Shown piece by piece: positions 49,406 through 64,000 of a DNA stretch of 64,000 nucleotides. Source of the stretch: Desulfobacula sp. (GTDB lineage Bacteria > Desulfobacterota > Desulfobacteria > Desulfobacterales > Desulfobacteraceae); the NCBI RefSeq assembly GCF_014237455.1, contig NZ_JABZFL010000015.1:4403-68402 (forward strand). The letters run 5' to 3'. The position numbers and the translations under genes were made by a program. The notes beneath the pieces were generated by a model. It was not told the DNA's origin. It was given only the letters and a program-made list of their open reading frames with translations, and ran no database searches. Each line of letters opens with the position of its first letter. Position 1 is the first letter of the stretch.

Positions 49406-49428
49406 TCTGCCCTGTGGATCAGGGCAGA
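49406..49428 (-). terminator. Probable terminator of the minus-strand catabolic operon
   Basis: TCTGCCCTG-tggat-CAGGGCAGA followed on the minus strand by TTTAAAATTT. Confidence 0.6.
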
Positions 49429-49438
49429 GTGTATTGTT

Positions 49439-50692
49439 TTATGGATACTTATTCTTTATAAAGGCAAGGGATTCATCGATCGCGGTCAAGGTGAGATCCA
49501 GGTCTTCTTCGGTGTGTCTGTAGCTGATATAGGCATGGTGAAAGGGGGTGAAAAAGAAACCTTTCCGGATGAGCTGGGTATAAAAATCCCTGCGCTTGCC
49601 TTTGTATGCACCGGTTTCATCCTTTTTAAAGGTGATGTAGAACATGGGGGCAACACCCGTCAGTTCGGCACCCACACCATGTTTGTCAATCACGGTCTGG
49701 ATATTTTTCATGAACCGTTCACCTTTTTCCCATATGTTCTCCAGCACATTGTCCCGCTCCAGGATTTCTATAGTTTTCAGCGCGGCAATAAAGGCCTCGC
49801 TGTTGGGAAAGAATGTGGAAGAAATAAACAGCTTGGATTCAGCCGCCATCATGACCTCTTTTTTTCCGGTCACAACAGAGATGGGATATCCGTTGCCCAT
49901 GGCCTTTCCAAGGACTGTTAAATCAGGGGTTACATTATAAAGTTCCTGGGCGCCGCCCATTCTAAGCCTGAAGCAGGTACGGATTTCATCATAGATAAGG
50001 ACTGCTCCATACTTGTCTGAAATTTTCCTGACCCCTTCAAGGAATCCCGGGGTCGGGGTCTCCATTTTTTGATGGTTGGGATGGCCGAATGGGGTCATAA
50101 TGATGGCGGCGGTATCACCTCCATGAGTGGCCATCAGCTCTTCTAACTGTTCAAGCTTATTGTACTGGAATTCAAAAACGTCTTCATAAAATTTTGACGG
50201 AATCCCCCCTTTCATCTCAATACACCAGTCGTGCCAGCCATGGTAACCGCACCGCATCACCTTGAGTTTATTTGTATGGGCCCTTGCAATACGGATGCTG
50301 GCGGTGGTGGCGTCAGAACCTGTTTTTAAAAAAATGCTCATTTCAGAAGAGGGAACAATCTGGGTCAGCTTTCTGGCAAGTTTGTTCTGAAACTTCTGGG
50401 TCAGGGTGAAACAAAAACCTTTTTCTTTTATTTGTTTGTAAACCGCTGCATCCACCTCTTCTTCCCGGTAACCCAGGATGATGGGGCCGTAACCGCAGAG
50501 AAAATCAATAAATTCATTGCCGTCAACATCAGTCAGATGGCAGCCTTTGCCCTCATCAAGAAAGATGGGATATTCTCCGTCAATAAAATCGCCCGGCTTT
50601 CTGGCACCCAAAACCCCACCGGGGATAAGTGTGGTTGCCTCTTCAAATAATTCCCGGCTTTTCGTGATATTTAGTTTTTCTGTCTCTTTCAT
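49439..50692 (-). CDS. Class III PLP aminotransferase (GSA-aminomutase-like)
   Basis: 'DVDGNEFIDF..GYGPIILG', 'KTGSDAT', 'YHGWHD', 'LIYDEIRT.FR', PLP-Lys 'LGKAMGNG'. Confidence 0.88.
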   Translation of the reverse strand: MKETEKLNITKSRELFEEATTLIPGGVLGARKPGDFIDGEYPIFLDEGKGCHLTDVDGNEFIDFLCGYGPIILGYREEEVDAAVYKQIKEKGFCFTLTQKFQNKLARKLTQIVPSSEMSIFLKTGSDATTASIRIARAHTNKLKVMRCGYHGWHDWCIEMKGGIPSKFYEDVFEFQYNKLEQLEELMATHGGDTAAIIMTPFGHPNHQKMETPTPGFLEGVRKISDKYGAVLIYDEIRTCFRLRMGGAQELYNVTPDLTVLGKAMGNGYPISVVTGKKEVMMAAESKLFISSTFFPNSEAFIAALKTIEILERDNVLENIWEKGERFMKNIQTVIDKHGVGAELTGVAPMFYITFKKDETGAYKGKRRDFYTQLIRKGFFFTPFHHAYISYRHTEEDLDLTLTAIDESLAFIKNKYP

Positions 50693-50713
50693 GGAATACC
50701 TCCTGTGCTAAAC

Positions 50714-51856
50714 TTAAATTTCAAACATGGATGAAATTTTTTGGGTCTGGTGGATTCTGGCACCCCTCTTTAAAAACGCACCAATGAATTTGGCAGGGTC
50801 AATACAGCCTTCCGGGGCCACAACCCCTTTTACGCTCACATCACCGGCATCCATCATAAGTGATGCTATGGAGGCGGGGAGTCCTGTTCCGGGAGCCATT
50901 CTTCCCACCATATCGGCGGTGTAAGTAACTTTTTTACCATCTTTTTTTCCTTTGACAATGACTTTAAGGCCCGAAGACTGGGGGCCGTTATCCCTTCCTT
51001 CAGGGATGGTCTCCCAAAGTTTTAATGCAATATCATAGGGAGTGACCTTGGTTCCCTTGATATCCATAGGTTCGGTGCTTAATAAACCCGTATTTTTCTG
51101 CTCCTGTATCAGTTCATCCACCCATAAAGGAATAAGAGCGCCTTTGATGATGACATTTTTAACCCCTTTAATATATCTTGGAAGGGTTAATGGCTGGGGA
51201 TGTCCCACGTAGCGGACATGGCAGGTGCCAAGGGGGTCAAGAAACTGTTCTGCCGTTTCTTCGGTTCCGCCTTCCACATGGACCAGTTTTCCATCAATAT
51301 ACTGGGGGATTTTCCCCAGGGTCATATGAAGGCTGTGGTCCCATGCAGCGCCTGCAAGTTCGGCAATGCTGACCACCCAGTAAAGATAAATATCATCAAC
51401 ACTGTCCAATTTGTCTGCATACCATTTTACCAGGATATTATTGGTTCCGGGATCAGAGCCCATGCCAGTGAGAACGGTGATGCCTGCTTCTTTTGCCATT
51501 TTATCAATGTCGGAGTTGAAAAGAATCTCGGTCCCTTCATAATCGTCACAGATATCAATATAGTTTACCTTTGCCTCAACCGCTGCTTTTGCGACCGGCA
51601 CGGCAGTCTTGTAAAAGGGTCCGGCACAGTTAATCACCACATCAACCTCTTTGAATGCAGTCACCATGACATCGTGGTTGTTTACGTCCATTTTTATCAG
51701 TGTTGTTTTTTCATTTTCGCGTAATTTTTTTGACAGTCTTTCCGGGTCCGGATACAAGTCAGCTAAAATAACATGTGTAACCTGTTCCTGTTTTATCAGA
51801 TCCCTTGCCACTCCCTGACCCATACCGCCGACGCCGCCTATTATCACTGCACGCAT
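50714..51856 (-). CDS. Saccharopine dehydrogenase/lysine 6-dehydrogenase-like NAD(P) oxidoreductase
   Basis: 'IIGGVGGMG', 'VINCAGPFY', 'NYIDICDD', 'GMGSDPG..N'. Confidence 0.85.
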   Translation of the reverse strand: MRAVIIGGVGGMGQGVARDLIKQEQVTHVILADLYPDPERLSKKLRENEKTTLIKMDVNNHDVMVTAFKEVDVVINCAGPFYKTAVPVAKAAVEAKVNYIDICDDYEGTEILFNSDIDKMAKEAGITVLTGMGSDPGTNNILVKWYADKLDSVDDIYLYWVVSIAELAGAAWDHSLHMTLGKIPQYIDGKLVHVEGGTEETAEQFLDPLGTCHVRYVGHPQPLTLPRYIKGVKNVIIKGALIPLWVDELIQEQKNTGLLSTEPMDIKGTKVTPYDIALKLWETIPEGRDNGPQSSGLKVIVKGKKDGKKVTYTADMVGRMAPGTGLPASIASLMMDAGDVSVKGVVAPEGCIDPAKFIGAFLKRGARIHQTQKISSMFEI

Positions 51857-51946
51857 GTTTTTTTCTCCTGCTATTCTTTATATAATAAATGTTATTAATA
51901 TTTATTGTCTATTATCTGTTTCCGCTGCCTCCCGGTCTCCCTCCTC

Positions 51947-53134
51947 TTATATTTTAAGAACCAGAGCCGCTCCTGTATCCCCGGCCGCACAGCCGGTAAA
52001 GAGCATATATCCTCCGCCCTTGTCTGCCAGTTCCTCTATGCCTTCAATGATCAGCCGTCCTGCCGTGGGTGCCTGGGGGTGGCCGAATATAAGAGAAGAC
52101 CCGAAATTATTGAATGAATTTACATCGATATCCATCTGGCTGGCCAGATAGATGTCATTGGCAGCAAAGGGATTGTGGGTCTTGATCACTTTTACATCCT
52201 TGATGGAGATGCCAGCCTTGTCCAGGGCCATTTGGGCGGCAGGTACTACTGCCATGGCCATGAACCCTTTTTTTGACCTTGAAAATCCATAGGAAATAAT
52301 CTGTGCATCCTTTGATCTGTCCTGGCTTAGTTCTTTTGCTTTTTCTCTTGAGGTGACAATCAGACCGCAGTTGCCGTCAGCCGGGTGGGTCTGGGACCCG
52401 AAAGTATGAGAACCGTCCGGCAGTACCGGCCTGAGTTTTTCAAGACCTTGTCTTGTGGTGGGCATAACCCCTTCATCTGCATCCAGTGAAAGGGTTTTCT
52501 TTTTTGATATTCGTATGCTTACCGGAAACATATATTTTTTCTGGAATTCTCTGTCATTGGCAAGGCTGTCTGTGTACTGTTCATATCGTCGCAAGGCAAC
52601 ATCATCACATTGCTCCCTTGTCACTCCGGTTTTTCTGGCAACATTTTCAGCGGTCTGGATCATGGCATTTTTTGCCCAGGGATCATTGTTGAACTGGTCC
52701 ATGAGCCAGTTTTCTGAAATCACCTGTCCGCCGGGGCCGTTTGGATTGGGCCAGATGGTATGGGGACCGTTGGAACATCGGTCTGTCATCAAAGTGAAGA
52801 CATTTTGATAAAGTCCTGTCTCAATACCCATGGCTGCCTGGAATATAACAGTGGTTGAGGTGGAACAGGCCTGGCTGATAAGACAACCTGGAATATTTTG
52901 AGCGCCGATCAAAGCAGATGCCCATGGACCTCCGTAAAATGTATAGGGCTGCCCTATAGTTGCACCAAGGATCAGATAGTCGAACAGATCGGGTTCTATT
53001 TTTTTTGTTTGCAGCCATGCCTTTGCAGTTTCAGATCCAAGAACAATGGAATGCTCATTGGCCAGGCTGCCCTGCCATTTGGAAAAAGGGCTTGAATAAT
53101 AACCTTTGTATGGGATAAACGCTTTTGTTAACAT
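51947..53134 (-). CDS. Thiolase family protein (non-canonical motifs)
   Basis: 'SQACSTS', 'HPADG', 'HNPFAAND', 'VNSFNNFGSSLIFGHPQAPT', 'GCAAGD'. Confidence 0.85.
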   Translation of the reverse strand: MLTKAFIPYKGYYSSPFSKWQGSLANEHSIVLGSETAKAWLQTKKIEPDLFDYLILGATIGQPYTFYGGPWASALIGAQNIPGCLISQACSTSTTVIFQAAMGIETGLYQNVFTLMTDRCSNGPHTIWPNPNGPGGQVISENWLMDQFNNDPWAKNAMIQTAENVARKTGVTREQCDDVALRRYEQYTDSLANDREFQKKYMFPVSIRISKKKTLSLDADEGVMPTTRQGLEKLRPVLPDGSHTFGSQTHPADGNCGLIVTSREKAKELSQDRSKDAQIISYGFSRSKKGFMAMAVVPAAQMALDKAGISIKDVKVIKTHNPFAANDIYLASQMDIDVNSFNNFGSSLIFGHPQAPTAGRLIIEGIEELADKGGGYMLFTGCAAGDTGAALVLKI

Positions 53135-53193
53135 GATTAAATCCTCCGTATGAATATCATCTCACCAAGTCCATGATTTGGTCTATGACTGGG

Positions 53194-54003
53194 TCAATGA
53201 TTATATTTTTTTAAAATAGCTTCCAGAACACTGCCGCCAATAGCCCGTGCTTTTTCCGAGATTGTGGTGCAATATTGCCTGTTTCCCCTGGGATCAATGT
53301 CACCAAGTTTCAGCTTGTCTGTGACACTGATATTATTTCTTATCCGGCCTCTTAAAACGCCGTCAATCTGAGCAATGACGGGTTTGCCGTCAACATGTCC
53401 CACTACATCATTTTTTTTGACAGGGGTGCCGATGCTTAAAGAAGAGGTGAATATGCCGGAGCAGGGAGAGCGAAGAACCCTTTCTATAGTATACCCGTTT
53501 ATATTGCCGGGGGCTCCGGTATTGGGTTCGGGACAACCCTTTAAAATGAGTCGCCCAAGGTTGTGGCCCCGGTTGGTTTCTATGGCCATATGCACATCTT
53601 TTCCTGCCTCAAATCCAGGCCCAAGTCCGATAACCAAAGGGGCTTCGGATAGGTTTGTCCCCAGGTTTTTTTTGGCAATAATTGCATCAATCACCACATG
53701 GGGCCGAATCGCCTTTATACTTTCCCAATACGGGTCAACAATGACAGGGATACTATTGCTGTCCCAGGCGGTTTGGATGTCATCAAGGTGAAAGACCTTT
53801 TTGGCCGTAACACCTTCCACGATGATTTTTCCATCATGGATTGCCTCGCAGAAGGAAACCCGCCTTCTGACAGCCACAGGGTTTTCGATCTCCAGCATGA
53901 AGATATGTTTAAAATTTGATTGAAAAAGACGGCAGGCAAGACCGGTTGCCATTTCTCCTGCACCTTTTATTGCGATGATAAGTTCTGAGATATTTTGTTT
54001 CAT
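53194..54003 (-). CDS. yqeB: Selenium-dependent molybdenum hydroxylase system protein, YqeB family
   Basis: 'IKGAGEMATG.A..L', 'P.AVRRRVSF.EA', 'GHNLGRLI..G..EPNTG.PG', 'KLGDIDPR', 'KARAIGGSVLEA'. Confidence 0.85.
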   Translation of the reverse strand: MKQNISELIIAIKGAGEMATGLACRLFQSNFKHIFMLEIENPVAVRRRVSFCEAIHDGKIIVEGVTAKKVFHLDDIQTAWDSNSIPVIVDPYWESIKAIRPHVVIDAIIAKKNLGTNLSEAPLVIGLGPGFEAGKDVHMAIETNRGHNLGRLILKGCPEPNTGAPGNINGYTIERVLRSPCSGIFTSSLSIGTPVKKNDVVGHVDGKPVIAQIDGVLRGRIRNNISVTDKLKLGDIDPRGNRQYCTTISEKARAIGGSVLEAILKKYNH

Positions 54004-54007
54004 TGTT

Positions 54008-54730
54008 TTAATGCCCGTATTCACAAAAGGTTGTAAGGTTAAGAATTTTTGCGGGTGCGCAAATGGTCACCCCATAGAAAACAGCAGGCTTGTCCGCATT
54101 AATAAAGTTTGAAATGGTGTTGTTGACAATGGTTGAACCGGTTGCAAATATCATGGTACACCACTTGATCGCCTCTTGGGTATTTTTTTGTGGTTCAATG
54201 GCAATATTGAAAAATTTTTTCCCAATATTGTCCTTGTCCAGATCAACGGCCCGCACCTGGCAATGGGAAGCGAGTGTCTCAAGAAATCTTGGCTGGTGTC
54301 CCACCAGAAGCACCTTTGAATCTTTCGGAATAATGTCAGGCAGTTTCTCGGCGCAAAAAACTGGTTCCTTATCTTTGCAGTGAATGGTTTTGTCAGCAAG
54401 GCCAAGATGTCTGTAAACAGCATTCAACCCTGCAATAAAAGAGGCTCGTTCCCTGTTTGTGGAAAGGTCCATAGTCAAGAGATCTTTAACGCGATATGCC
54501 CTGTTTTCAAATTCATCCGTAAAGCTCTGGCCCTTTGCATTGAGAAAATCAGCCTCAACCATGACTTCTTTGCCTTTGATAATGGGGTAGTCATCATGAT
54601 CAGGATTCCCAATGGCCTGTTCAGCCGAAAGCGCCTTGCACGTGATGTTGATAGGCTGGTCTGCAAGATCATGAAAGATTATTTTTTCTTTTAGAGCTTT
54701 TTTTAAGGCATCATATAGGATAACTGACAT
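54008..54730 (-). CDS. DUF364-like (Rossmann-like, putative heavy-metal chelation) protein
   Basis: 'AIGNPDHDDYPII.GKE..VEA.F....GQSFTD', 'IFATGSTIVNNT', 'FYGVT'. Confidence 0.65.
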   Translation of the reverse strand: MSVILYDALKKALKEKIIFHDLADQPINITCKALSAEQAIGNPDHDDYPIIKGKEVMVEADFLNAKGQSFTDEFENRAYRVKDLLTMDLSTNRERASFIAGLNAVYRHLGLADKTIHCKDKEPVFCAEKLPDIIPKDSKVLLVGHQPRFLETLASHCQVRAVDLDKDNIGKKFFNIAIEPQKNTQEAIKWCTMIFATGSTIVNNTISNFINADKPAVFYGVTICAPAKILNLTTFCEYGH

Positions 54731-55579
54731 TTATATCTCCTTATAGAGGGCATCTCTTTTTTCTTTGTGAGTTTTTATTGCCTTTAAAGTCGGTTGCAAC
54801 AGATAGGTAAAGGCAATCATCATCAGGATAATGCCAAATACTTGTTTAAGATAAAAACCCGGCAGCAGACCGGATATGGCAGAGCCTGTCACAGCGCCTG
54901 CAAGAGACGGGAGAAACAACGCCTTAAACACCTTGAAATTCAAGTTTGCAAGTTTGTGGTGCATGAGTGTGGCAGATTGTGATAAAAAAAACATGGTTGT
55001 TAAAGACAGGCAGATGGCCTGGTGCATGTTAAAATTCATTACAATCACAAAAAACGGTACAATGAGCAGTCCGCAGCCAATCCCCAGCCATGTGGCGATG
55101 ATGCCGATAATAATGCCGAAAGCCATGATAAAAAGGGCTTCATGGGCCCAGGAGATCTCATTGAGATTTGAAAACATTAAAAATGGAAAGTCCACAAATT
55201 TTAAAATCCGAAGGCTTGCAATGAGAAGAAAAACGGCAAAAATCCACTTGAGCCACTGGTTGTTCCATTTATGGATATATTTTGAGCCTATGATGGTACC
55301 AATGACACACATGGGAATAAAAACAAGAAAGTATTTGCCTGAAGGGGGATTGGGAAAAATAAACAAATGAGATACAGCCCCTACAAATGTGATGGGGATA
55401 ATGGTTGCAAGGGAAGTTGCTGCCGCCTGCTTAAAATCAAATTTAAAAATCGATATGAATGTGGAAACAAATATGGTTCCCCCGCCAATACCGATACCGG
55501 CACTGAAAAGTGCCACAAAAAAGCCCAGCAGTCTTAACGCTGTTTTAGGAAAATTTTTAGATGTCTTTACTCTGGACAT
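54731..55579 (-). CDS. TauE/SafE family sulfite exporter-like membrane protein
   Basis: Duplicated 'GIGIGGG' / 'LGIGCG.LIVP' halves with 'A.ATSL' / 'A.CLSL'. Confidence 0.8.
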   Translation of the reverse strand: MSRVKTSKNFPKTALRLLGFFVALFSAGIGIGGGTIFVSTFISIFKFDFKQAAATSLATIIPITFVGAVSHLFIFPNPPSGKYFLVFIPMCVIGTIIGSKYIHKWNNQWLKWIFAVFLLIASLRILKFVDFPFLMFSNLNEISWAHEALFIMAFGIIIGIIATWLGIGCGLLIVPFFVIVMNFNMHQAICLSLTTMFFLSQSATLMHHKLANLNFKVFKALFLPSLAGAVTGSAISGLLPGFYLKQVFGIILMMIAFTYLLQPTLKAIKTHKEKRDALYKEI

Positions 55580-55596
55580 AATGGCCGCCTCACATT

Positions 55597-56616
55597 TTAT
55601 CTTCCGAATGAACAGACAGGATAATGACAGACCTTGCAATTCATGCACAATCCGCCATGACCCATGGCTGCAATATCATCTTCAGTGATTATTTCTCCGG
55701 CCAGAACCCTTGGGAAAATCAGGTCAAACACGGTCTGCTTGTAATAAAACACACAGGCCGGCAGGCTGATAATGGGTATGTCAGCAAGCCGTGAGACCAT
55801 GAGCATGGCCCCGGGAAGAACAGGACTGCCGTAAAATGTAACATCGGCACCCGTCCTGATAACCCCCTGGCGGGTGACATCATCCGGGTCAACGGAAAGT
55901 CCTCCCGTGGTAATAATCATTTCGCATCCCAGTTTTTTTAATTCCAGGATGGCATTGGAAATGGCCTTCTCTTCATCGGGTACGATGATTTTTTTGATGA
56001 GTGTACATCCGGCATCTGTAATTTTTTTCCCGACGGACGGGCCAAAATCATCTGTGATCAGGCCGTTAAAGACTTCAGAACCCGTTACCACAGCACCAAT
56101 TTTTAAGGATTTGTAGGGTTTGACTGAAAGAAGGGTTCCTGTCTTTTTTGTCAGTGTTTCCAAAACTTCAATGTTCTCTGTCGGGATAGTTAATGGAATG
56201 ATCCGAGTGCCTGCAATGATTTCTCCTTTTTTGCAGGGAAAATTATTTTTTAATGTGGCCACAATAATGTTTTCCATTTTGTTGACCTGGAGCAGGGCAT
56301 CAACATTGATTTTTAGCAGGCCTGCATGCTTTGTACTTATATTTATTTTACCTTCCCGGGGTTCAGAAAATTCAAGGTCCTGATCTGAAATAGCACTTGC
56401 TATCCTTTTTGCAGCATCATCTTCATGGAGTTGATCATTTCCAAGATCAAGGACATAGAGATACTGCTTCCCGATTTTTAAAAGTTCCGGAATATCTTTT
56501 TTTTGTATGACATATCCTTTTTTAAATCCAACCCCTTTGAATTTTCCCCGGATGATCCGTGTCATATCATGGGCGAGAACGGTTCCAACTGCATCTTCAA
56601 CTTTGAGCTTTTTCAT
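55597..56616 (-). CDS. Molybdopterin-binding (MoeA/MogA-like) protein
   Basis: 'AVGTVLAHDMT', 'LHEDDAA', 'TGSEVFNG', 'TGGLSVDPDDVT', 'PVLPGAM', 'LPACV'. Confidence 0.85.
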   Translation of the reverse strand: MKKLKVEDAVGTVLAHDMTRIIRGKFKGVGFKKGYVIQKKDIPELLKIGKQYLYVLDLGNDQLHEDDAAKRIASAISDQDLEFSEPREGKINISTKHAGLLKINVDALLQVNKMENIIVATLKNNFPCKKGEIIAGTRIIPLTIPTENIEVLETLTKKTGTLLSVKPYKSLKIGAVVTGSEVFNGLITDDFGPSVGKKITDAGCTLIKKIIVPDEEKAISNAILELKKLGCEMIITTGGLSVDPDDVTRQGVIRTGADVTFYGSPVLPGAMLMVSRLADIPIISLPACVFYYKQTVFDLIFPRVLAGEIITEDDIAAMGHGGLCMNCKVCHYPVCSFGR

Positions 56617-56635
56617 TTATATATCCTGGTCGTGA

Positions 56636-58981
56636 TCAATTGACCGCATTATTTTTTGATGTTTTTTTTTCAGCCTGGGCTTTTTTTCCCTTAATGGCGG
56701 CAAGGATTTTGTCCGGGGTTAAAGGAAATGAGTCCATATAGACACCGATGGCATTACTGACAGCTGCGCTGTAGCCTTGTGCCGCCGACATGGCAATGGA
56801 CATGCCGGCTTCCTTGGCCCCGTATGGCCCTTTGGGGTCAATGGACTCCACAATGATAGTATTGATTTTGGGCATGTCACAGGCCAGGGGCAGTTTATAA
56901 TCCAGCATGGTGGGGTTGATGCATCTGCCGTCTTTCCATTCATGATATTCAGTGAGCATACCGCCCTGTCCGCCCATGGTAAGGGCGCCTTCAAACTGCC
57001 CTTCCAGAACCAGGGGATTTATACCATATCCCACATCCTGGGCAGCGGTTGCCTCCAGCACCTCAACCTGACCCGTGTCAGGGTCCACTTTGACTTCAAC
57101 AATAGTGGTGCCGAATGAAAAGGCTTCACACATCTGGCCGTAGGGATTTTTAACCCATTCGCGTTTCATGTCCACTTTGGGCCAGTATCCGCCTTCAGCA
57201 TTAACGGAATTAAAATTCAAAAGGCTGATTCGCACCACCTTTTTAATAGGGATGGATTTTGATGCTTTGCATCTCTTCGAGCCAGGGTCATCTTTGACAA
57301 AAATCAGGCGGTTTTTTGCCGCAAGCTTGTCAGGTTCCACTTTCAACAATTTTGAAGCCACCTCAAAGAGTTTTTCTCTACAGTTCTGTGCTGCGATCTT
57401 CACAGCATGACCGCCCACAAAGGTGGAGACCTGGGAATAGGACCCCGGATCAGAAGACGTGGTCTCTGTGTCGGCCGAAACCAGATGGATGTCTTCGGGT
57501 AAAAGTCCCAGCTCTTCGGCGGCTATCTGGACCAGCATGTTGTCATTTCCCTGGCCGTTATCCACAACCCCTGACATGACCGTTGCCTCCCCGTCTTCAT
57601 TAAACTTGATAAAAGACTGGGAACCACCGCGGATTCCCATGGGAAATCCGGTCTGTACAGAGTTTGTCCCGATACCGATACCATGATATGGGGGTAGTTT
57701 TCCCCATTTTTCCTTGAACCCGGACTTTTCAACAGCCTTATGAATGGTCTCATCCATGGCACAGGAATCGACATAGGATTTTGTACTGGTATATTCACCC
57801 GGCTGCCGGGAATTTCTTAACCTCATCTCCACGGGATCAATGCCAAGATGGTCTGCTATCATGTCCAGCTGGGTATCGAGCCCACAGGCAAATCCCCGTC
57901 CGTGGGTTCTTATCATGCCCCTGATGGGTTTGTTGGTATAAATCCTGTACCCGTTGTACCGAACGCTTTCCATCCTGTAAGCCTGTTCCATGGAAAGAAA
58001 GGGCACGCTTGTGGCAATGGGCCCAGTACTGGAATAGGCACCTCCATCCATATAGCAGGTGGTTTCTCTTGCCAGGACCCTTCCGTCCTTGTCCACCCCT
58101 GTTTTATGGGTGGTGATCATGGCATGCCCCTGTCGGGTGGCAATGGTGTTTTCTTCTCGTGTGAACTGAATTCTGACAGGCCGTTTGGTCTTTTTTGCCA
58201 GAAGGGCACAGATATAGTCTACCGGGCAGATTTCGGACCGGCCCCCGAATGCACCACCAATGGCTATTTTTTTTACTTTTACCTTGTGAAGCGGAAGTTT
58301 GAAAGCATTGGATAACGGTTTGGATTTCATATGGGGTCCGCCGTTAGGACACCAGACCTCCAGGCAGTCTTCATGGTCAAATCTTGCGGCAACTGCATAG
58401 GGCTCAGCCTGGAAATAAGATTCTTCCGGTGCCACATAGGTATCTTCCCTGATATAGTAGGCCTTTTCAAAGTTTTCGTCCACATTTCCCGTATCAATAT
58501 TCACATGGACATTAATATTGTTGGGAAAATCCTCATGGATGAGTTCGGTTTCCGATACCATGGCTTCCATGGGATCAAATACGGGCGGCAGCTCCTCGTA
58601 CGTAACTTCAATGAGATCAAGGGCTTTAAGAGCGGTGTCTTCATCCACAGCCGCCACACCTGCCACTTCATCCCCAATATATCTGACTTTTTCTATCTGG
58701 ATAAATTGTTGGTCCCGGGTATAAGCAAATACTCCCCATTTAACGCCTTTGGTCTCTTTTCCGGTAACAATCGCTTTGACTCCGGGAAGTGCTTCGGCCT
58801 TTGAGGTATCAATATTTAGAATACGGGCGTGGGCATAGGGGCTTCTTTTGATTTTTCCCACCAGCATGCCGGGCAGTTTCAAATCAGCAGTAAACTTTGC
58901 CTTTCCCATGACCTTGGCTCTGGAATCAACTCTGGGCATTCTTTTTCCAACAATAGTATAATCTGAGGTATAATCAGACAT
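56636..58981 (-). CDS. Xanthine-oxidase-family Mo-binding subunit (HcrA-like, atypical active site)
   Basis: 'RSPYAHARI', 'GGAFGGRS', 'GQGNDN', 'SDPGSYSQ', C-terminal 'GPYGAKEAGMS'. Confidence 0.9.
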   Translation of the reverse strand: MSDYTSDYTIVGKRMPRVDSRAKVMGKAKFTADLKLPGMLVGKIKRSPYAHARILNIDTSKAEALPGVKAIVTGKETKGVKWGVFAYTRDQQFIQIEKVRYIGDEVAGVAAVDEDTALKALDLIEVTYEELPPVFDPMEAMVSETELIHEDFPNNINVHVNIDTGNVDENFEKAYYIREDTYVAPEESYFQAEPYAVAARFDHEDCLEVWCPNGGPHMKSKPLSNAFKLPLHKVKVKKIAIGGAFGGRSEICPVDYICALLAKKTKRPVRIQFTREENTIATRQGHAMITTHKTGVDKDGRVLARETTCYMDGGAYSSTGPIATSVPFLSMEQAYRMESVRYNGYRIYTNKPIRGMIRTHGRGFACGLDTQLDMIADHLGIDPVEMRLRNSRQPGEYTSTKSYVDSCAMDETIHKAVEKSGFKEKWGKLPPYHGIGIGTNSVQTGFPMGIRGGSQSFIKFNEDGEATVMSGVVDNGQGNDNMLVQIAAEELGLLPEDIHLVSADTETTSSDPGSYSQVSTFVGGHAVKIAAQNCREKLFEVASKLLKVEPDKLAAKNRLIFVKDDPGSKRCKASKSIPIKKVVRISLLNFNSVNAEGGYWPKVDMKREWVKNPYGQMCEAFSFGTTIVEVKVDPDTGQVEVLEATAAQDVGYGINPLVLEGQFEGALTMGGQGGMLTEYHEWKDGRCINPTMLDYKLPLACDMPKINTIIVESIDPKGPYGAKEAGMSIAMSAAQGYSAAVSNAIGVYMDSFPLTPDKILAAIKGKKAQAEKKTSKNNAVN

Positions 58982-58984
58982 TTT

Positions 58985-59494
58985 TTACTCCTTTGTTTTA
59001 CCACCAGTCTTACAGTCTGGGCAATGGTCCTGTGGATTGCCTGTATGGGCCACGGCTTCAACAATTTTTGCATAACCGGTACACCGGCAGATATTTCCGG
59101 CAAGGGCTTTTCGGACGGTTTTTTCATCGGGCTTGGAATTTTTATTCAGCAGTGCATCGGCTGACATGAGCATGCCCGGGGTGCAGAATCCGCATTGGAC
59201 AGCCCCGTGGTCGATAAAGGACTGCTGAAGATCTGACAAATCATCCTCGGTGGCAAGCCCTTCCACTGTTTTAATCTTTGTTCCTGTGGCTTCCATGGCA
59301 AGAGTCAGGCAGGACCGGACAGGATTTCCGTCCATGTGAACGGTACAGGACCCGCAAACGCCTTCACCGCAACTTTCTTTTGATCCGGTCAGATCAAGCT
59401 CATCCCGCAATACTTCCAAAAGGGTGTCATTGGGAAAGACCCGGACGTCATAGGGTTTATCATTTATATTTAAGGTGATCTTTATTTTTTCCAT
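58985..59494 (-). CDS. 2x[2Fe-2S] subunit (CoxS/HcrC-like)
   Basis: 'CGEGVCGSCTV', 'C', 'QCGFCTPG', 'GNICRCTGY'. Start placed at ATG 59494. Confidence 0.92.
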   Translation of the reverse strand: MEKIKITLNINDKPYDVRVFPNDTLLEVLRDELDLTGSKESCGEGVCGSCTVHMDGNPVRSCLTLAMEATGTKIKTVEGLATEDDLSDLQQSFIDHGAVQCGFCTPGMLMSADALLNKNSKPDEKTVRKALAGNICRCTGYAKIVEAVAHTGNPQDHCPDCKTGGKTKE

Positions 59495-59516
59495 GTTTAA
59501 AAACTCCGTTATTCGG

Positions 59517-60521
59517 TTATTCCCTTGCAGCCAAGGCTGCCTGCTCAAGCGCCTGGAATACCATTTGCGACACCATGGCACATCGGTACTCAAGGGTTGC
59601 GCCCACATTGTGAACGGCAAATGTTGATGCATTATCCATTGCAATATCGGCTGCCCTTTTAAAGGCGACTGTATCAGATAATTTTTTTCCTTTTAAAGAA
59701 GATGATGCCTGGGCAAGGAAGAGAGGCGACCTTCCCATGGCACCGACAACGATTCGCACGTCATCTATTTCATTTTTTTGAGTGTCGGATAGTTTTAAAA
59801 GAACGCCGGCACAGACAATGGGGTAATCAATGGCAGACCGGTAGGCAAGGCGCTTATAGGCACTCTGGGCACCCCCTATGGGTATGATAATTTCTTTTAG
59901 GAGTTCATGGGATTCCATGGCAAAGGGCATGATGCCGTCAGTGGTGTAAAAGTCGGCAAGATCCATGGTTCTCTCCCCGCCTTTTCTTGCCAAAATGATT
60001 TTGGCGTTTAAGGTCATGAGAGCCGTGGCACCGTCTGACTGGCAGGTGGAGTTGCACCGGTCTGCTTCTTCTCGAGCATAACAGATTTTTCCACCATCCT
60101 TGTGGCAGGCCTGGCGCCCGGATCTATGGAAATCCGATTGGTTGTAGTGATGGCACCTATTGTCCTGGAGGATGTTTCCGCCAATGGTACCCCTGTCATG
60201 CTGGATGGTAATGGCCCCGATTTTTTCACATGCCTGGAACAGCGCTTTGGCTTTTTTTTGAATAAGATCCGAAGCAATAATATCTGCTATGGATGTTCTG
60301 GCACCGATTTTAATACATCCGTCTTTTTTATTAATATAGGATAATTCGTTCAAGGCTTTGAGGCTGATGAGAGTTTTTGGTTTTAACAACCCTTTTTTCA
60401 TCCTGACCAGAAGATCCGTTCCCCCTGCAAGGATTTTCGCATCATCCTTGTGAGTGGCTAAAAGGTCAAGGGTTTGATCAAGCGTTTCAGGTCCTAAATA
60501 GTCAAACCTTGGTAACCGCAC
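59517..60521 (-). CDS. FAD subunit with HcrB-type [4Fe-4S] insertion
   Basis: 'AGGTDL', 'GTIGGNILQDNRC', Cys spacing C-x15-C-x7-C-x8-C; GTG start. Confidence 0.88.
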   Translation of the reverse strand: MRLPRFDYLGPETLDQTLDLLATHKDDAKILAGGTDLLVRMKKGLLKPKTLISLKALNELSYINKKDGCIKIGARTSIADIIASDLIQKKAKALFQACEKIGAITIQHDRGTIGGNILQDNRCHHYNQSDFHRSGRQACHKDGGKICYAREEADRCNSTCQSDGATALMTLNAKIILARKGGERTMDLADFYTTDGIMPFAMESHELLKEIIIPIGGAQSAYKRLAYRSAIDYPIVCAGVLLKLSDTQKNEIDDVRIVVGAMGRSPLFLAQASSSLKGKKLSDTVAFKRAADIAMDNASTFAVHNVGATLEYRCAMVSQMVFQALEQAALAARE

Positions 60522-60542
60522 GGTTTTTTCTCCTTTTTATTT

Positions 60543-60587
60543 GGGGTCAAGCTTGGCTTATTGCATCAATAAGCCAAGCTTGACCCC
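60543..60587. repeat. Perfect 21-bp inverted repeat (REP-like)
   Basis: GGGGTCAAGCTTGGCTTATTG-CAT-CAATAAGCCAAGCTTGACCCC between dctM and the FAD subunit gene. Confidence 0.75.
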
Positions 60588-60592
60588 GTTTA

Positions 60593-61897
60593 TTAATTCA
60601 AGAGGTTCGGTAAAAACAGGACCACTTTCGGGAAAAGCATCATTAAAATTACACAAATAATATAGGCCGGCAGAAAATAGGCAACACCCTTAAACACCCG
60701 TTCAAGAGGCACATCTTTTGCCATGCCGCCAACCACATAGGTGGTAGCCCCCACAGGCGGTGTCACAGCACCCAGTGTGGTGACAATGGTAATGGTGACC
60801 CCGAACCAGATGGGATCATACCCGAGTTCTACGGCCACAGGAAAGAAAATGGGAATCGTGATGAGCAAAAGGGCCAGGGCATCCATGACAGCCCCACCGA
60901 TCATGTAAATTAAAAAGATGATGGCCATGATGGTCAGTTTGGAAAAGGGAAGGGCGACCACCCAGGAGGCAATATCAAAGGGTATTCTTGTAATGGCCAG
61001 AAACCGTCCGAATATCATGGCGCCTGTGATGATCACAATGACCATGCAGGATATTTTCAGGGTGTCGAAAATGGAATTATAAAAATCATTCCAGGAAAGA
61101 TTTTTTTGCACCACGCCGATGACAACGGCAAAGAATGATCCAATGGCGCCTGCTTCTGTCGGGGTGAACAGTCCGAAGTAGAGTCCGATCATGACGACCA
61201 GGAAAAGAATGAGCATTTCAACGGCACCGGTAAGGGATTTTATCTTTTCCTTAAATGTGGTTTTTCCCCCCACAGGCCCCCATTCAGGATAGATGGTACA
61301 AAGCACGTAGACGGTGAGGGTCAAAAGCAGGGCAAGCAGAATGCCGGCACCAAGCCCGCCGTAAAAGAGTTTGGCAATGGACTGTTCCGTGGAAAGCCCG
61401 ATAATAATCAGGACAACACTTGGTGGAATAACTACTCCCAGGGTTGACCCGCAGGCAATGGCTCCTGTGCTGAGCATGGGTTCATACTTGTATTTGTTCA
61501 TCTGGGGCAGGGCAACCGTGGTCATGGTGGCTGCCGTAGCTGCATTGGAACCGCAGATGGCTGCAAAGGCAGAGCATGCCAGGATAGTTGCCATGGCAAT
61601 ACCGCCCCTGACGTGGCCCACCCATTTATAGGCGGCAGTGTAAAGTTTTTCATTGACTCCGGAATAAAAGGCAATCTGGCCCATAAAGATAAACAGCGGG
61701 ATTACTGTCAGCCCGTATTTGGAAAAGGTATCCCATGTGACCGTTGCCAGCATGTTGAATCCTGCAGTAAGAGAAATGACATAGGAAAATCCGCAGAATC
61801 CCACAAGGCCCATGGCAAATCCAACAGGGATGCCGAAGACAAACAGGATAAACAGTAAAGCAAAGATACCGATAATGCCGATCAGGGTGAGGCTCAT
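60593..61897 (-). CDS. dctM: TRAP transporter large permease
   Basis: 'IPLFIFMG', 'CGSNAATAAT', 'GSTLGVVIPPS', 'TPPVG'. Confidence 0.93.
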   Translation of the reverse strand: MSLTLIGIIGIFALLFILFVFGIPVGFAMGLVGFCGFSYVISLTAGFNMLATVTWDTFSKYGLTVIPLFIFMGQIAFYSGVNEKLYTAAYKWVGHVRGGIAMATILACSAFAAICGSNAATAATMTTVALPQMNKYKYEPMLSTGAIACGSTLGVVIPPSVVLIIIGLSTEQSIAKLFYGGLGAGILLALLLTLTVYVLCTIYPEWGPVGGKTTFKEKIKSLTGAVEMLILFLVVMIGLYFGLFTPTEAGAIGSFFAVVIGVVQKNLSWNDFYNSIFDTLKISCMVIVIITGAMIFGRFLAITRIPFDIASWVVALPFSKLTIMAIIFLIYMIGGAVMDALALLLITIPIFFPVAVELGYDPIWFGVTITIVTTLGAVTPPVGATTYVVGGMAKDVPLERVFKGVAYFLPAYIICVILMMLFPKVVLFLPNLLN

Positions 61898-62385
61898 CTG
61901 GAGATCTCCTTTTGCGGCAAAATGGCCTTTAAAAAATCTGTAAAGATCGCCAGGGCAAGAACAAAACAGCCGAATGCCACGGCAAAGGTAAAGGGATAAT
62001 AGATAATTCTCAAGGTTTCGGAGAGTTCACCTGCATTTTTCAGTGTCAAGGCCTTTTGAACAATATGCCAGGAAGCAATGGAAAAGAAGGCACAGCAAAC
62101 CCCGTGGTTAATAATGGATACAATCCGTTTAAGCGGTTTAGGATAGGCATTGACCAGAACATCTACGGAGATATGCCCATTGGTAAACTGGGTGTATCCA
62201 AGGGCAAACGCCGTTACAACCGCCCCGGCATATCCCATGAGTTCAAAAGTGCCTCTGATGGGGATATAAAACTGCCGGATAAAGATGTTGGCACAGGTCA
62301 GAAGAATCATGCCCAGGAGAAATGCACCTCCGGTCAGCGTGAGCAGCTTATTCAAAAATTTATTGATTCTCATTAAAAGATCCAT
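61894..62385 (-). CDS. dctQ: TRAP transporter small permease
   Basis: Four TM helices, 'GHISVDVL'. Confidence 0.9.
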   Translation of the reverse strand: MDLLMRINKFLNKLLTLTGGAFLLGMILLTCANIFIRQFYIPIRGTFELMGYAGAVVTAFALGYTQFTNGHISVDVLVNAYPKPLKRIVSIINHGVCCAFFSIASWHIVQKALTLKNAGELSETLRIIYYPFTFAVAFGCFVLALAIFTDFLKAILPQKEISR

Positions 62386-62401
62386 GTGGAGTCTCCGAAA
62401 C

Positions 62402-62429
62402 CCTCTAACCGCCGCATGGCGGTTAGAGG
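62402..62429. other. Intercistronic stem-loop between dctP and dctQ
   Basis: CCTCTAACCGCC-GCAT-GGCGGTTAGAGG perfect 12-bp stem; no U-tract on the minus strand. Confidence 0.6.
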
Positions 62430-62448
62430 TAATTTGTAAACAAGAAAG

Positions 62449-63459
62449 TTATTGGGCAAAGGCTTTAATATCCTTGATAATCTCTTCTGCAGGAAGGCCC
62501 TTTTCTTTGGCACCTGCAATCCATTTTTCAGTTATAAAATCAAGTTTAGCATCCCATTTGGTTTTTTCTCCGGCTGAAAGAGAGATAAATTCAACATTGT
62601 TGGCCTCTTTTGACCAGGCAATCGATTTTTTAATCTGCTCATCCATGTAAGCCCCGGTCCAGAGAGACTGTTCTTCTTTAAGATCCATCATGACTTTCTG
62701 TACATCAGCAGGTAATGAAGCCCATTTCGTTTTATTCATAATAACAGAAAAGGGGTATAATACCGTATCGGTCATGGTAACATATTTGCAGTTTTCAGCG
62801 AATTTAAAGTCCTTCATGACTTCCAGCGAAGAGAAAAGGCCTTTAACCGTTCCTTTCTGCAAAGCTTCAACAGTTGCCGGCATGGGCATTCCCACAGGAT
62901 TGGCTCCCCAGGCTTTCAGAATCTGGGCGGCACCGCCGGATGCTCTTAAATCCAGCCCCTTGATATCGGCAAGAGTTCTTACCGGAACTTTTGACATGAC
63001 ATTTCCGGGGGCATTGGTAAACATGGCCAGAACAACGACATCCTTAAAAGCTTTGGGTTGATATTTTTCATATAATTTGAGAAGGGCGATGCTGCCTTTT
63101 TTGGCATCCTTGATGCCAAGCGGAAGACTTGTGGCATTGGTGACAATAAATCTTCCCGGTTGATAGGCCATGCAGATATTTCCGATGTCCGACTGCCCTG
63201 CAATAACACCATCCATCATTCCCTTGGCACCCAGAAGGGTTCCGCCGGGGAATGTATTGATCTGGACCTGTCCGTTGGTGCGTTTTTCAACTTCAACTTT
63301 CCATCTTTCCATTTGAACACAGGGGAATGTGGGAGCCGGTGGGAAATTGGCATAATTGAGTTTGATTTTGCCTGCCATTACAGGAGTTTGAAATATTAAA
63401 AGGCAGGTGACAATAGCAAATAAAAAAAGTGTTGCTGAAAAAATTGATCGTTTTACCAT
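62449..63459 (-). CDS. dctP: TRAP transporter substrate-binding protein
   Basis: Signal peptide, 'FPGGTLL', 'LKGL.LR'-like 'IKGLDLRASG', 'GANPVGMPM'. Confidence 0.9.
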   Translation of the reverse strand: MVKRSIFSATLFLFAIVTCLLIFQTPVMAGKIKLNYANFPPAPTFPCVQMERWKVEVEKRTNGQVQINTFPGGTLLGAKGMMDGVIAGQSDIGNICMAYQPGRFIVTNATSLPLGIKDAKKGSIALLKLYEKYQPKAFKDVVVLAMFTNAPGNVMSKVPVRTLADIKGLDLRASGGAAQILKAWGANPVGMPMPATVEALQKGTVKGLFSSLEVMKDFKFAENCKYVTMTDTVLYPFSVIMNKTKWASLPADVQKVMMDLKEEQSLWTGAYMDEQIKKSIAWSKEANNVEFISLSAGEKTKWDAKLDFITEKWIAGAKEKGLPAEEIIKDIKAFAQ

Positions 63460-63507
63460 GGTTTAACCTCCGTTATTGAGAGCACATTTGCTCTGTTATA
63501 AGTTTCA

Positions 63508-63530
63508 GGGACAGATTTAAAATCTGTTCC
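63508..63530. repeat. Short REP-like palindrome
   Basis: GGGACAGATTT-A-AAATCTGTTCC just after the stop of the second Mo subunit. Confidence 0.45.
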
Positions 63531-63538
63531 TATTCACA

Positions 63539-64000
63539 TTAACCGTTTTTATCCTTTAAAGCAGCCAGCACTTTTTCGGGCGTAATGGGGAGATCTTTAA
63601 TCCTGACACCAACAGCATCATAAATCGCATTTGCAATGGCCGGAGCAGTGGGAACACATCCGGGTTCTCCAATTCCCTTGGCACCGAAAGGACCGTCCTT
63701 ATCGTCGGTTTCAATTACCGGAGCTTTGATTTTTACGGCATCTTTGGCAGTAAACAATTTGTAGTCCCTGAAATTAGCGTTCATAATTTCTCCGTCCTTG
63801 ACTGTGACTTCTTCTGTCAAGGCATAACCAAGTCCCATTATAACGCCGCCATAGACCTGGCCTTCAAGGAGCAGGGGATTGATGGCCCGGCCCACATCAT
63901 GGGCTGCCACATATTCAAGGACCTCTACTTTGCCGGTTTCTTCATCCACTTTGACTTTTGCCCCATGGGCACCAAAAGAGTATGTCATGGACATATTTCC
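63539..64000 (-). CDS. Second xanthine-oxidase-family Mo-binding subunit, C-terminal part (5' end outside window)
   Basis: 'HDVGRAINP', 'EGQVYGG', canonical 'GPFGAKGIGEP', 'LPITPEKVL'. Confidence 0.9.
   Translation of the reverse strand, partial: GNMSMTYSFGAHGAKVKVDEETGKVEVLEYVAAHDVGRAINPLLLEGQVYGGVIMGLGYALTEEVTVKDGEIMNANFRDYKLFTAKDAVKIKAPVIETDDKDGPFGAKGIGEPGCVPTAPAIANAIYDAVGVRIKDLPITPEKVLAALKDKNG

Follow-up and report, generated by a model that had tools for sequence, protein, structure and literature searches.

The cluster for the anaerobic degradation of indole-3-acetate (iaa) in Aromatoleum and Azoarcus is said to have been described in Ebenau-Jehle 2012 and Schuhle 2016 and 2021, and a molybdenum (Mo)-dependent hydroxylation at C2 of the Aromatoleum route is reportedly among the findings of the former. 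The lactam of 2-oxoindoleacetate is hydrolysed at the expense of ATP by the hydantoinase-like enzyme IaaCE (PMC8453981). In Aromatoleum aromaticum, IaaL carries out an intramolecular coenzyme A (CoA) transfer, IaaGH is a B12 mutase, and the decarboxylating benzylmalonyl-CoA dehydrogenase IaaF gives 2-aminocinnamoyl-CoA, from which beta-oxidation leads to 2-aminobenzoyl-CoA (PMC8360864). All orthologues of IaaF carry GGG at the place of the YEG of other acyl-CoA dehydrogenases; an electron-transfer flavoprotein (ETF) dedicated to IaaF was described for strict anaerobes, and iaa operons with such a dedicated ETF were predicted in Desulfatiglans anilini, other sulfate reducers, Ferroglobus and strain NaphS2 (PMC8360864). 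In D. anilini, proteins similar to 4-hydroxybenzoyl-CoA reductase (HBCR) were induced on aniline and on 4-aminobenzoate, and a 4-aminobenzoyl-CoA reductase was proposed (PMC7500099). Here, a stretch of 64,000 nucleotides from Desulfobacula sp. (the window, contig C48:4403-68402 of a genome of 3.48 Mb with 97.8% completeness) was analysed. The genes at 49439-64000 form, as judged by their spacing, the distal half of one operon of 29 genes, which probably encodes an anaerobic iaa pathway for indole-3-acetate and tryptophan-derived indoleacetyl-CoA, with the enzymes of the window as its nitrogen-removal module. The new element is a conserved HBCR-like reductase that lacks the catalytic glutamate of its family and is accompanied by a saccharopine-dehydrogenase-like (SDH-like) protein and a member of the Kat family of acyl-CoA beta-transaminases (AT3).

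The assignment to the iaa pathway is drawn from the genes upstream of the window, which match the Aromatoleum set, and from a GGG dehydrogenase among them. The cluster runs unbroken on the same strand past the window edge at 64000, and the next 26 kb extended it to 29 minus-strand genes over 33,536 bp, up to the gene for the alpha subunit of an indolepyruvate oxidoreductase (IOR) at C48 87376; the intergenic gaps among cluster genes are -17 to 90 bp. Pfam and NCBIfam scans identified in this upstream half, on the same strand, IOR alpha, IOR beta, a family-III CoA-transferase, EtfB, EtfA and an acyl-CoA dehydrogenase, together with a GntR/FCD regulator, MeaB, and the B12-binding and large subunits of a methylmalonyl-CoA-mutase-type enzyme. 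Nearest to the window lie Hydantoinase A, Hydantoinase B, a PaaK-family CoA ligase, FAD1, FeS1 and the full MoL1 gene, so that ligase, family-III CoA-transferase and B12 mutase plus MeaB are all found within one cluster. The ligase scored 406 bits against a PaaK cut-off of 646, and it is therefore taken as a paralogue with a different specificity. The best NCBIfam matches of Hydantoinase_A and Hydantoinase_B were the alpha (525 bits) and beta (280 bits) subunits of caprolactamase, which is a match at the family level only. The acyl-CoA dehydrogenase reads ...LLSGGGTHE (RFLLSGGGTHEV) and thus has the GGG of IaaF, which was also kept in the dehydrogenases that lie beside CoA-transferase and mutase in Syntrophorhabdales and Desulfarculaceae, at about 41% identity and in other gene orders. 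The EtfA of the cluster (C48 81685-82875) carries an N-terminal 2x[4Fe-4S] ferredoxin domain, and its best NCBIfam match was the electron-transfer subunit of acryloyl-CoA reductase.

A preliminary description of the window had left the pathway unassigned and had asked for the upstream contig to be read. This reading gave a single cluster and a named substrate route, so the whole belongs to an already known kind of pathway and only the part with the HBCR-like, SDH-like and Kat-like proteins is uncharacterised. The CoA ligase and the amidohydrolase that the same description had missed are indeed not in the window; they are the PaaK-type ligase and the hydantoinase-like lactamase just upstream of it. 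Its outline of uptake by a tripartite ATP-independent periplasmic (TRAP) transporter, CoA esters, ring hydroxylation by a Mo enzyme, an HBCR-type reductase, nitrogen removal and thiolysis was right. Its nitrogen-containing carboxylate is an aromatic one, and the pyridine or piperidine carboxylate that it had also considered gave way to the iaa route once the upstream genes were known.

The comparison with the iaa clusters of Aromatoleum aromaticum EbN1 and Azoarcus evansii revealed a shared core of PaaK-type ligase, hydantoinase-like ATP-dependent lactam hydrolase, family-III CoA-transferase, B12 mutase and GGG decarboxylating acyl-CoA dehydrogenase, as well as binding-protein-dependent uptake, a regulator inside the cluster and a common end point at 2-aminobenzoyl-CoA and acetyl-CoA. 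In contrast to the Aromatoleum cluster, the one described here has its own ETF, an entry from tryptophan through IorAB, and TRAP uptake instead of the Aromatoleum system. It also adds the Glu-less HBCR-like Mo enzyme, the SDH-like protein, the Kat-family transaminase and a Mo/selenium (Se) cassette, for which no counterpart in the denitrifiers is known from a comparison made without Aromatoleum sequences. Homology and synteny indicate that IorAB would convert indolepyruvate into indoleacetyl-CoA as the entry from tryptophan, and that DctPQM, presumed to take up indoleacetate, and the PaaK-type ligase would bring in the free acid. The MoL1/FeS1/FAD1 enzyme appears as an ordinary hydroxylase of the xanthine dehydrogenase (XDH) type, grouped with the ligase and with the ATP-dependent hydantoinase-like lactamase that would open the oxindole ring. 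The CoA-transferase, the B12 mutase with MeaB, and the IaaF-type dehydrogenase with its own ETF would then carry the side chain to 2-aminocinnamoyl-CoA.

The 14 co-oriented genes noted in the preliminary description were all real by the open reading frame (ORF) list and by the Pfam and NCBIfam scans. Its 'Mo subunit 2' is a genuine Mo subunit, of which the window holds just the tail, as the MoL1 gene crosses the window edge. The features are as follows, with pyridoxal phosphate abbreviated as PLP.

49406-49428, minus strand: hairpin with a nine-pair stem, 11 bp below the AT3 stop codon
49439-50692, minus strand: AT3, class-III PLP enzyme of the Kat family (PF00202, 181 bits)
50714-51856, minus strand: SDH-like NAD(P)-dependent C-N oxidoreductase of the saccharopine dehydrogenase family (Sacchrp_dh_NADP and Sacchrp_dh_C)
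51947-53134, minus strand: divergent thiolase (Thiolase_N, Thiolase_C)
53194-54024, minus strand: YqeB, a marker for the maturation of Se-dependent Mo hydroxylases (TIGR03309, 359 bits, cut-off 220)
54008-54730, minus strand: DUF364 protein (PF04016)
54731-55579, minus strand: TauE/SafE-family anion permease (PF01925, 142 bits; ORF open to 55648, likely start Met at 55579)
55597-56616, minus strand: 'MoeA-like' protein with a MoCF_biosynth domain and a C-terminal Cys cluster (PF00994, 73 bits)
56636-58981, minus strand: MoL2, HBCR-like Mo subunit of the XDH family (HcrA as best PDB match; Met at codon 56801-56803)
58985-59494, minus strand: FeS2, 2x[2Fe-2S] subunit (Fer2, Fer2_2; ORF open to 59644, homology from Met51)
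59517-60521, minus strand: FAD2, FAD subunit with an HcrB-type Cys-rich insertion (TIGR03195, 193 bits)
60542-60588, unstranded: perfect palindrome with a 20-bp stem, within the 71-bp DctM-FAD2 spacer, without a T-tail on the coding strand
60593-61897, minus strand: DctM (Pfam)
61894-62385, minus strand: DctQ (Pfam)
62402-62429, unstranded: hairpin with a 12-bp stem just after dctP, without a T-tail on the coding strand
62449-63459, minus strand: DctP (Pfam)
63539-64000, minus strand: C-terminal 153 aa of MoL1 (MoCoBD_2; full gene 63539-65821/65908, roughly 760-789 aa, past the window)

The two Mo enzymes of the cluster are of different types. MoL1 has the canonical GAKGIGEP motif and the catalytic Glu in 31 out of 31 orthologues, its FAD partner FAD1 is without a Cys insertion, and in the related loci it was always located together with the ligase and hydantoinase genes; MoL1 reads as the natural hydroxylase of the cluster. 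The best PDB match of MoL2 was HcrA of HBCR (1rm6_A, 428 bits), and it scored 624 bits against TIGR03194, for which the equivalog cut-off of 994.55 was not reached. Its motif is GAKEAGMS, compared to GAKEASEG in HcrA, and the position of the catalytic Glu is occupied by Met in all 74 MoL2 orthologues and by Leu in a sister subtype about 50% identical. FAD2 has an insertion, some 43 aa long, in which four Cys are retained without exception across 68 orthologues; they are spaced by 17/8/9 residues, a spacing which we take to resemble that of HcrB. In HcrB, a Cys-rich insertion in the beta subunit is the signature of the extra [4Fe-4S] cluster and characterises an enzyme of this family that uses low-potential electrons and runs 'backwards'; the insertion of FAD2 is a putative [4Fe-4S] site. 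From the four-Cys insertion, the loss of the Glu and the kinship with HcrA, we infer that MoL2 is a reductase-type, Glu-less relative of HBCR and that MoL2/FeS2/FAD2 would be a ferredoxin-driven reductase rather than a hydroxylase. Compared to HcrABC of Thauera aromatica (PDB 1RM6/1SB3), the MoL2 complex has the same three-subunit XDH-family architecture and the same four-Cys beta insertion, but it falls below the equivalog cut-off, has Met (Leu in the sister subtype) instead of Glu, and stands in the context of indoleacetate instead of phenol or 4-hydroxybenzoate. The score and the replaced Glu bear out the preliminary view that the enzyme is not a standard HBCR. In seven genomes, MoL2-like matches contained in-frame stops (one TGA plus one TAA, or one or two TGA; G189, G015, G219 and G094, of one family, and G124, G099 and G055), which may represent a split large subunit as in nicotinate dehydrogenase, or a recoded TGA.

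AT3 was assigned to the Kat family. It is HemL-like in NCBIfam, yet it stayed under every cut-off, and the genome's own HemL-like gene is 31% identical to it. Over its full length AT3 is 53% identical (490 bits) to P0290 (418 aa), a protein that occupies the Kat position of an operon Kce-Kdd-KamA-KamD-KamE-[aminotransferase]-AtoA-AtoD-thiolase. In a search of 1.84 billion cluster representatives, the 50% cluster representative of AT3 was 75% identical and bore the IMG name '3-aminobutanoyl-CoA transaminase'. The next full-length clusters were at most 44% identical, so the AT3 family is well separated; the gene contexts of these more distant relatives were unrelated, and none was informative. 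The PLP lysine motif, LGKAMGNG, is conserved. Kat is a 3-aminobutyryl-CoA transaminase, a 'HemL-like' protein adjoining a thiolase gene, which is active on thioesters only and also accepts a beta-phenylalanyl thioester analogue; its sole close homologue outside digesters, 60% identical, was found in strain NaphS2, which does not ferment lysine (Perret et al. 2011). The NaphS2 orthologue of AT3 is EFK10244.1 ('aminotransferase, class III'), 83% identical to AT3 of the window. With Kat of 'Candidatus Cloacamonas acidaminovorans' (Perret et al. 2011), AT3 shares the character of a HemL-like class-III PLP enzyme and a nearby thiolase gene, but its cluster is without lysine-fermentation genes, as no kce, kdd or kam gene was detected there by the Pfam and NCBIfam scans. 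AT3 would therefore act in the manner of Kat on another beta-aminoacyl-CoA, most likely converting it into the beta-ketoacyl-CoA, and its physiological substrate probably derives from the anthraniloyl moiety. The preliminary description had treated it as a generic C-N enzyme, which the Kat-family membership makes too broad.

The SDH-like protein scored above the gathering thresholds of PF03435 (61.7 bits) and PF16653 (37.5 bits). In PDB its matches were weak (carboxyspermidine dehydrogenase, saccharopine dehydrogenase and PH1688, the best at 47 bits), so that search gave no close characterised relative. The thiolase, with 127 bits for its best PDB match and visible Cys/His/Cys motifs, was found in 26 related loci.

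To place these proteins in other genomes, 80 related loci were obtained by a scan of species-representative genomes and compared by a tblastn matrix and by ORF families. The SDH-like gene lies directly before AT3 in 50 of the 80. Three blocks recur in Desulfobacula, Desulfotignum, Syntrophus, Syntrophorhabdales, Desulfarculaceae and Desulfatiglandales, namely [HydA HydB Lig FAD1 FeS1 MoL1], [(DctPQM) FAD2 FeS2 MoL2 (Epi) (MoeA-like YqeB thiolase) SDH AT3] and [CoAT ACAD EtfBA GntR MeaB mutase], where CoAT is the CoA-transferase, ACAD the acyl-CoA dehydrogenase and Epi a methylmalonyl-CoA-epimerase-like protein (83.6 bits, below the cut-off). The DctPQM position is kept in 26 related loci. Epi stays with SDH-AT3 even far from other iaa genes; where a genome lacks SDH/AT3, Epi and maturation genes of the MadB/MoxR, VWA and XdhC types come after the MoL2-like gene. 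In strain NaphS2, FAD2-FeS2-MoL2-SDH-AT3 is a stand-alone operon of five genes between housekeeping genes. Elsewhere the MoL2-SDH-AT3 unit adjoins a TrpB-like gene, SerA and IorAB, and in some lineages the operon reads FAD2-FeS2-MoL2-SDH-AT3-Epi-TrpB-like-AspC-like aminotransferase-IorA-IorB.

Co-occurrence was assayed in a fixed set of 300 further Desulfobacterota genomes. An IaaL-like CoA-transferase profile served as the iaa marker in place of an acyl-CoA dehydrogenase profile, for which 56% identity was too strict (GGG-motif enzymes reach 41%); it was found in 56 of the 300. MoL2-like proteins and this marker occurred together in 45 genomes, the first alone in 4, the second alone in 11 and neither in 240 (Fisher p 3e-38, like the other tests without correction for phylogeny). 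For the SDH-like protein and the marker, the respective numbers were 33, 5, 23 and 239 (p 1e-23), and for the SDH-like protein and the BamA/Oah ring hydrolase 30, 8, 52 and 210 (p 1e-12). The exceptions, in both directions, were mostly fragmentary genomes. In these strict anaerobes, the HBCR-like enzyme comes close to being a core component of iaa clusters. SDH/AT3 is a common addition, found in about 60% of the iaa-positive genomes and almost only with iaa (33 of 38 genomes). Neither an HBCR-like enzyme nor a saccharopine-dehydrogenase-like protein was found in iaa clusters in the literature searched, with Ebenau-Jehle 2012 and Schuhle 2016 outside it, and in public records the genes of the window half carry only generic names.

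Five loci (L093, L095, L099, L103 and L105) contain a TrpB-like PLP enzyme (719 bits, above the cut-off) beside or inside the iaa/MoL2 operons, accompanied by an AspC-type aminotransferase, IorAB and sometimes SerA. This set suggests an entry for anaerobic indole degradation that would lead from indole through tryptophan and indolepyruvate to indoleacetyl-CoA. The window's own genome has a TrpB-like gene on contig C4. A role of AT3 as a tryptophan transaminase feeding IorAB was considered and rejected, both because the operons of other lineages have an AspC-type aminotransferase of their own, placed between TrpB-like gene and IorA, and because AT3 belongs to the Kat family. A 3.3-kb contig with FeS2 and MoL2 at 94% identity (L007) was binned in a 'Promethearchaeota archaeon' metagenome-assembled genome (MAG); it is almost certainly a Desulfobacterales contig that contaminates this bin.

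The genes between MoL2 and the thiolase form a maturation cassette, in which the MoeA-like, TauE, DUF364 and YqeB proteins would mature a Mo cofactor, probably a Mo-Se one. The MoeA-like protein is not a full MoeA, and in 17 related loci its gene comes after that of the Mo subunit. The cassette is duplicated on contig C16 with 75-81% identity (YqeB 75%, TauE 76%, DUF364 80%). TauE and DUF364 were absent from the 80 species-representative loci. Both are nevertheless found on near-identical contigs of other Desulfobacula MAGs, where DUF364 copies at least 90% identical adjoin the thiolase. Together with the C16 duplicate, these copies led us to reject the idea of an insertion unique to this genome. 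YqeC was detected on contig C56 (181 bits), beside a MocA-like gene, and SelD on C37:10289-11212 (371 bits), with one in-frame TGA and hence probably a selenocysteine-containing selenophosphate synthetase. With YqeB, YqeC and SelD encoded, the genome has, on gene content, the selenium-dependent Mo-hydroxylase trait.

A second, partly degraded copy of the window arrangement was observed on contigs C92 and C16. On C92 (1-9279) lie a third Mo subunit of the XDH type, a second TRAP system (DctPQM'), a response regulator, and a PaaK-like ligase with 31% identity to that of the iaa cluster. The same contig carries a fragment of a MoL2 pseudogene, which covers residues 298-724 at 84% identity and has a C-terminal frameshift. 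The intact MoeA-like, TauE, DUF364 and YqeB copies of C16 (1-4556), which follow this pseudogene, are succeeded by a transposase-like ORF. The arrangement may be a cluster for another aromatic acid.

As for expression elements in the window, the hairpin at 49406-49428 is likely the operon end. The palindrome at 60542-60588 and the hairpin at 62402-62429 may act on RNA stability or by attenuation and so tune the expression of the TRAP system relative to the reductase; a hairpin after dctP is typical of the over-expression of binding proteins. FAD2 starts with GTG, preceded by AAGGAG. A 'regulatory motif' GCGGTTACC enriched ahead of FAD2 genes was discarded, as it consisted only of the conserved first codons GTG CGG TTA CC.

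The window module is best read as removing nitrogen from 2-aminobenzoyl-CoA or 2-aminocinnamoyl-CoA, and the MoL2 complex would act on one of these o-amino-aryl CoA esters. Within the iaa route, 2-aminobenzoyl-CoA alone is a beta-amino acyl-CoA, and as its beta carbon is aromatic, no transamination can precede ring reduction. In the order that is tentatively put forward here, to which somewhat less than even credence is given, the ring of 2-aminobenzoyl-CoA would be reduced by MoL2 and then by the SDH-like protein, which comes from an imine-reducing family and is an NAD(P)-type reductase. The alpha carbon would then be epimerised (by the Epi-like protein of the relatives), and AT3 would transaminate the aliphatic beta-amine to 6-oxo- or 2-oxo-cyclohex(en)ecarbonyl-CoA, passing the nitrogen to a 2-oxo acid; SDH-like protein and AT3 would thus together turn a beta-aminoacyl-CoA into a beta-ketoacyl-CoA. 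The product would be cleaved by the thiolase or by an Oah/BamA hydrolase encoded elsewhere in the genome. The retention of Epi with SDH-AT3 suggests a substrate with an alpha stereocentre, as in an alicyclic acyl-CoA. A further, more speculative proposal, which we consider unlikely, is that strict anaerobes dispose of 2-aminobenzoyl-CoA without benzoyl-CoA reductase and without elimination of ammonia. The Glu-less, possibly Mo-Se MoL2 and the SDH-like protein would dearomatise the ring to an alicyclic beta-aminoacyl-CoA, and after epimerisation and Kat-type transamination the former aromatic amine would go to 2-oxoglutarate, and 6-oxocyclohexenoyl-CoA or 2-oxocyclohexanecarboxyl-CoA to ring cleavage.

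Elsewhere the genome has Had, Oah and, at C90:37440-52816, a bam-type cluster for a class-II benzoyl-CoA reductase. There a TRAP system lies beside Had (TIGR03201, 480 bits), an SDR and Oah/BamA (540 bits); next come a BamB-like protein of the AOR family (660 aa) and genes of the Fe-S and HdrA-like kinds. On the basis of this cluster, the organism can be expected to degrade benzoyl-CoA.

Several points weigh against the route by ring reduction and transamination, or against the assignment of the cluster as a whole. On thermodynamic grounds it is difficult to dearomatise an aryl-CoA with nothing but ferredoxin-level electrons, and HBCR chemistry favours elimination with re-aromatisation. MoL2-like proteins occur without SDH/AT3 in 18 of 49 genomes, and Epi-SDH-AT3 can lie apart from any Mo gene, so a single linear order of action is not required of the three. 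The cluster has no gene for an enoyl-CoA hydratase or a hydroxyacyl-CoA dehydrogenase, which leaves the step from 2-aminocinnamoyl-CoA to 2-aminobenzoyl-CoA without an assigned gene in the cluster. The co-occurrence tests, finally, treat related genomes as independent, although many families were spanned.

In the main rival, which is possible, though we lean towards doubting it, MoL2 alone would be a reductive deaminase, converting 2-aminocinnamoyl-CoA or 2-aminobenzoyl-CoA into cinnamoyl-CoA or benzoyl-CoA and ammonia. The SDH-like protein and AT3 would then act separately, on another beta-aminoacyl-CoA, and so supply the thiolase encoded next to them. For example, a glutamate adduct could be oxidised by the SDH-like protein to the beta-aminoacyl-CoA and 2-oxoglutarate, with Kat-type transamination back to glutamate, and such a cycle could stand in for hydratase and dehydrogenase while the side chain is beta-oxidised ahead of thiolysis. 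The near-universal presence of MoL2-like proteins in iaa-positive genomes, where SDH/AT3 is optional, argues for a deaminase, as does the position of MoL2-like genes next to the CoAT-ACAD-Etf-mutase block, the source of 2-aminocinnamoyl-CoA. Elimination with re-aromatisation is moreover proven, exergonic HBCR chemistry, and from our own chemical reasoning an early loss of the amine, ahead of side-chain saturation, would avoid the lactam or quinolone dead ends of o-amino beta-oxidation intermediates. D. anilini gives a precedent (PMC7500099). Its ani and hcr clusters (Xie et al. 2020) are similar in having HBCR-type enzymes, amino-substituted benzoyl-CoA, a proposed reductive removal of nitrogen and a strictly anaerobic host, but the amine is para there and ortho here, and no SDH-like or Kat-like partners were reported; the likeness is one of description. 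The side-chain role of SDH/AT3 fits the thiolase directly before SDH-AT3, as a thiolase accompanies Kat in lysine fermenters, and the activity of Kat on a beta-phenylalanyl thioester analogue. In contrast, no cluster gene would make the linear beta-aminoacyl-CoA, and a linear 3-amino-3-arylpropionyl-CoA has no alpha stereocentre, yet an alpha-epimerase-like gene travels with SDH-AT3. Hydratase and dehydrogenase genes are also equally missing in clusters with and without SDH/AT3, so that across the clusters compared no complementary distribution was found that would mark SDH/AT3 as their substitute.

Two other explanations deserve very little credence. MoL2/FeS2/FAD2 might be an ordinary HBCR parked beside the iaa genes, with the downstream genes unrelated; HcrA is its best solved relative, the beta-subunit insertion is present, and some public records name orthologues '4-hydroxybenzoyl-CoA reductase subunit alpha'. 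This is highly improbable, as the TIGR03194 score (624 vs 994) lies far under the equivalog cut-off, the Glu of HcrA is replaced by Met or Leu in all members, the co-occurrence of MoL2-like proteins with iaa is extremely tight, and gene spacing and synteny tie the enzyme to SDH-AT3 in 50 loci. More improbable still is a cluster for a pyridine or piperidine carboxylate (nicotinate, picolinate or pipecolate) or for lysine, combining Se-dependent hydroxylation and saccharopine-type chemistry. YqeB, YqeC, SelD and a saccharopine-dehydrogenase-family protein would fit it, and relatives of AT3 work in lysine fermentation, but the 33.5-kb cluster has no enamidase, 6-hydroxynicotinate reductase, methyleneglutarate mutase, Kce, Kdd or KamADE, and every upstream gene fits the iaa scheme, including the diagnostic GGG dehydrogenase.

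Indoleacetate, a plant hormone, and other tryptophan-derived indoles are widespread in sediments, guts and rhizospheres. To our knowledge, the mineralisation of indoles by strict anaerobes is known only in outline, and the reductive removal of the amino group from aminobenzoyl-CoA, a matter of physiology since about 1990, has never been tied to a purified enzyme. The cluster and its relatives give candidates in an HBCR-like clade without the catalytic glutamate of the family, and AT3 points to a physiological role of the rare acyl-CoA beta-transaminase family outside lysine fermentation. As the genes bear generic names in the databases, the pathway has been overlooked in the annotation of metagenomes. 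Strain NaphS2 is a cultured carrier, which makes the question directly testable. If true, the route free of benzoyl-CoA reductase would give the xanthine-oxidase family a dearomatisation chemistry that is new to it.

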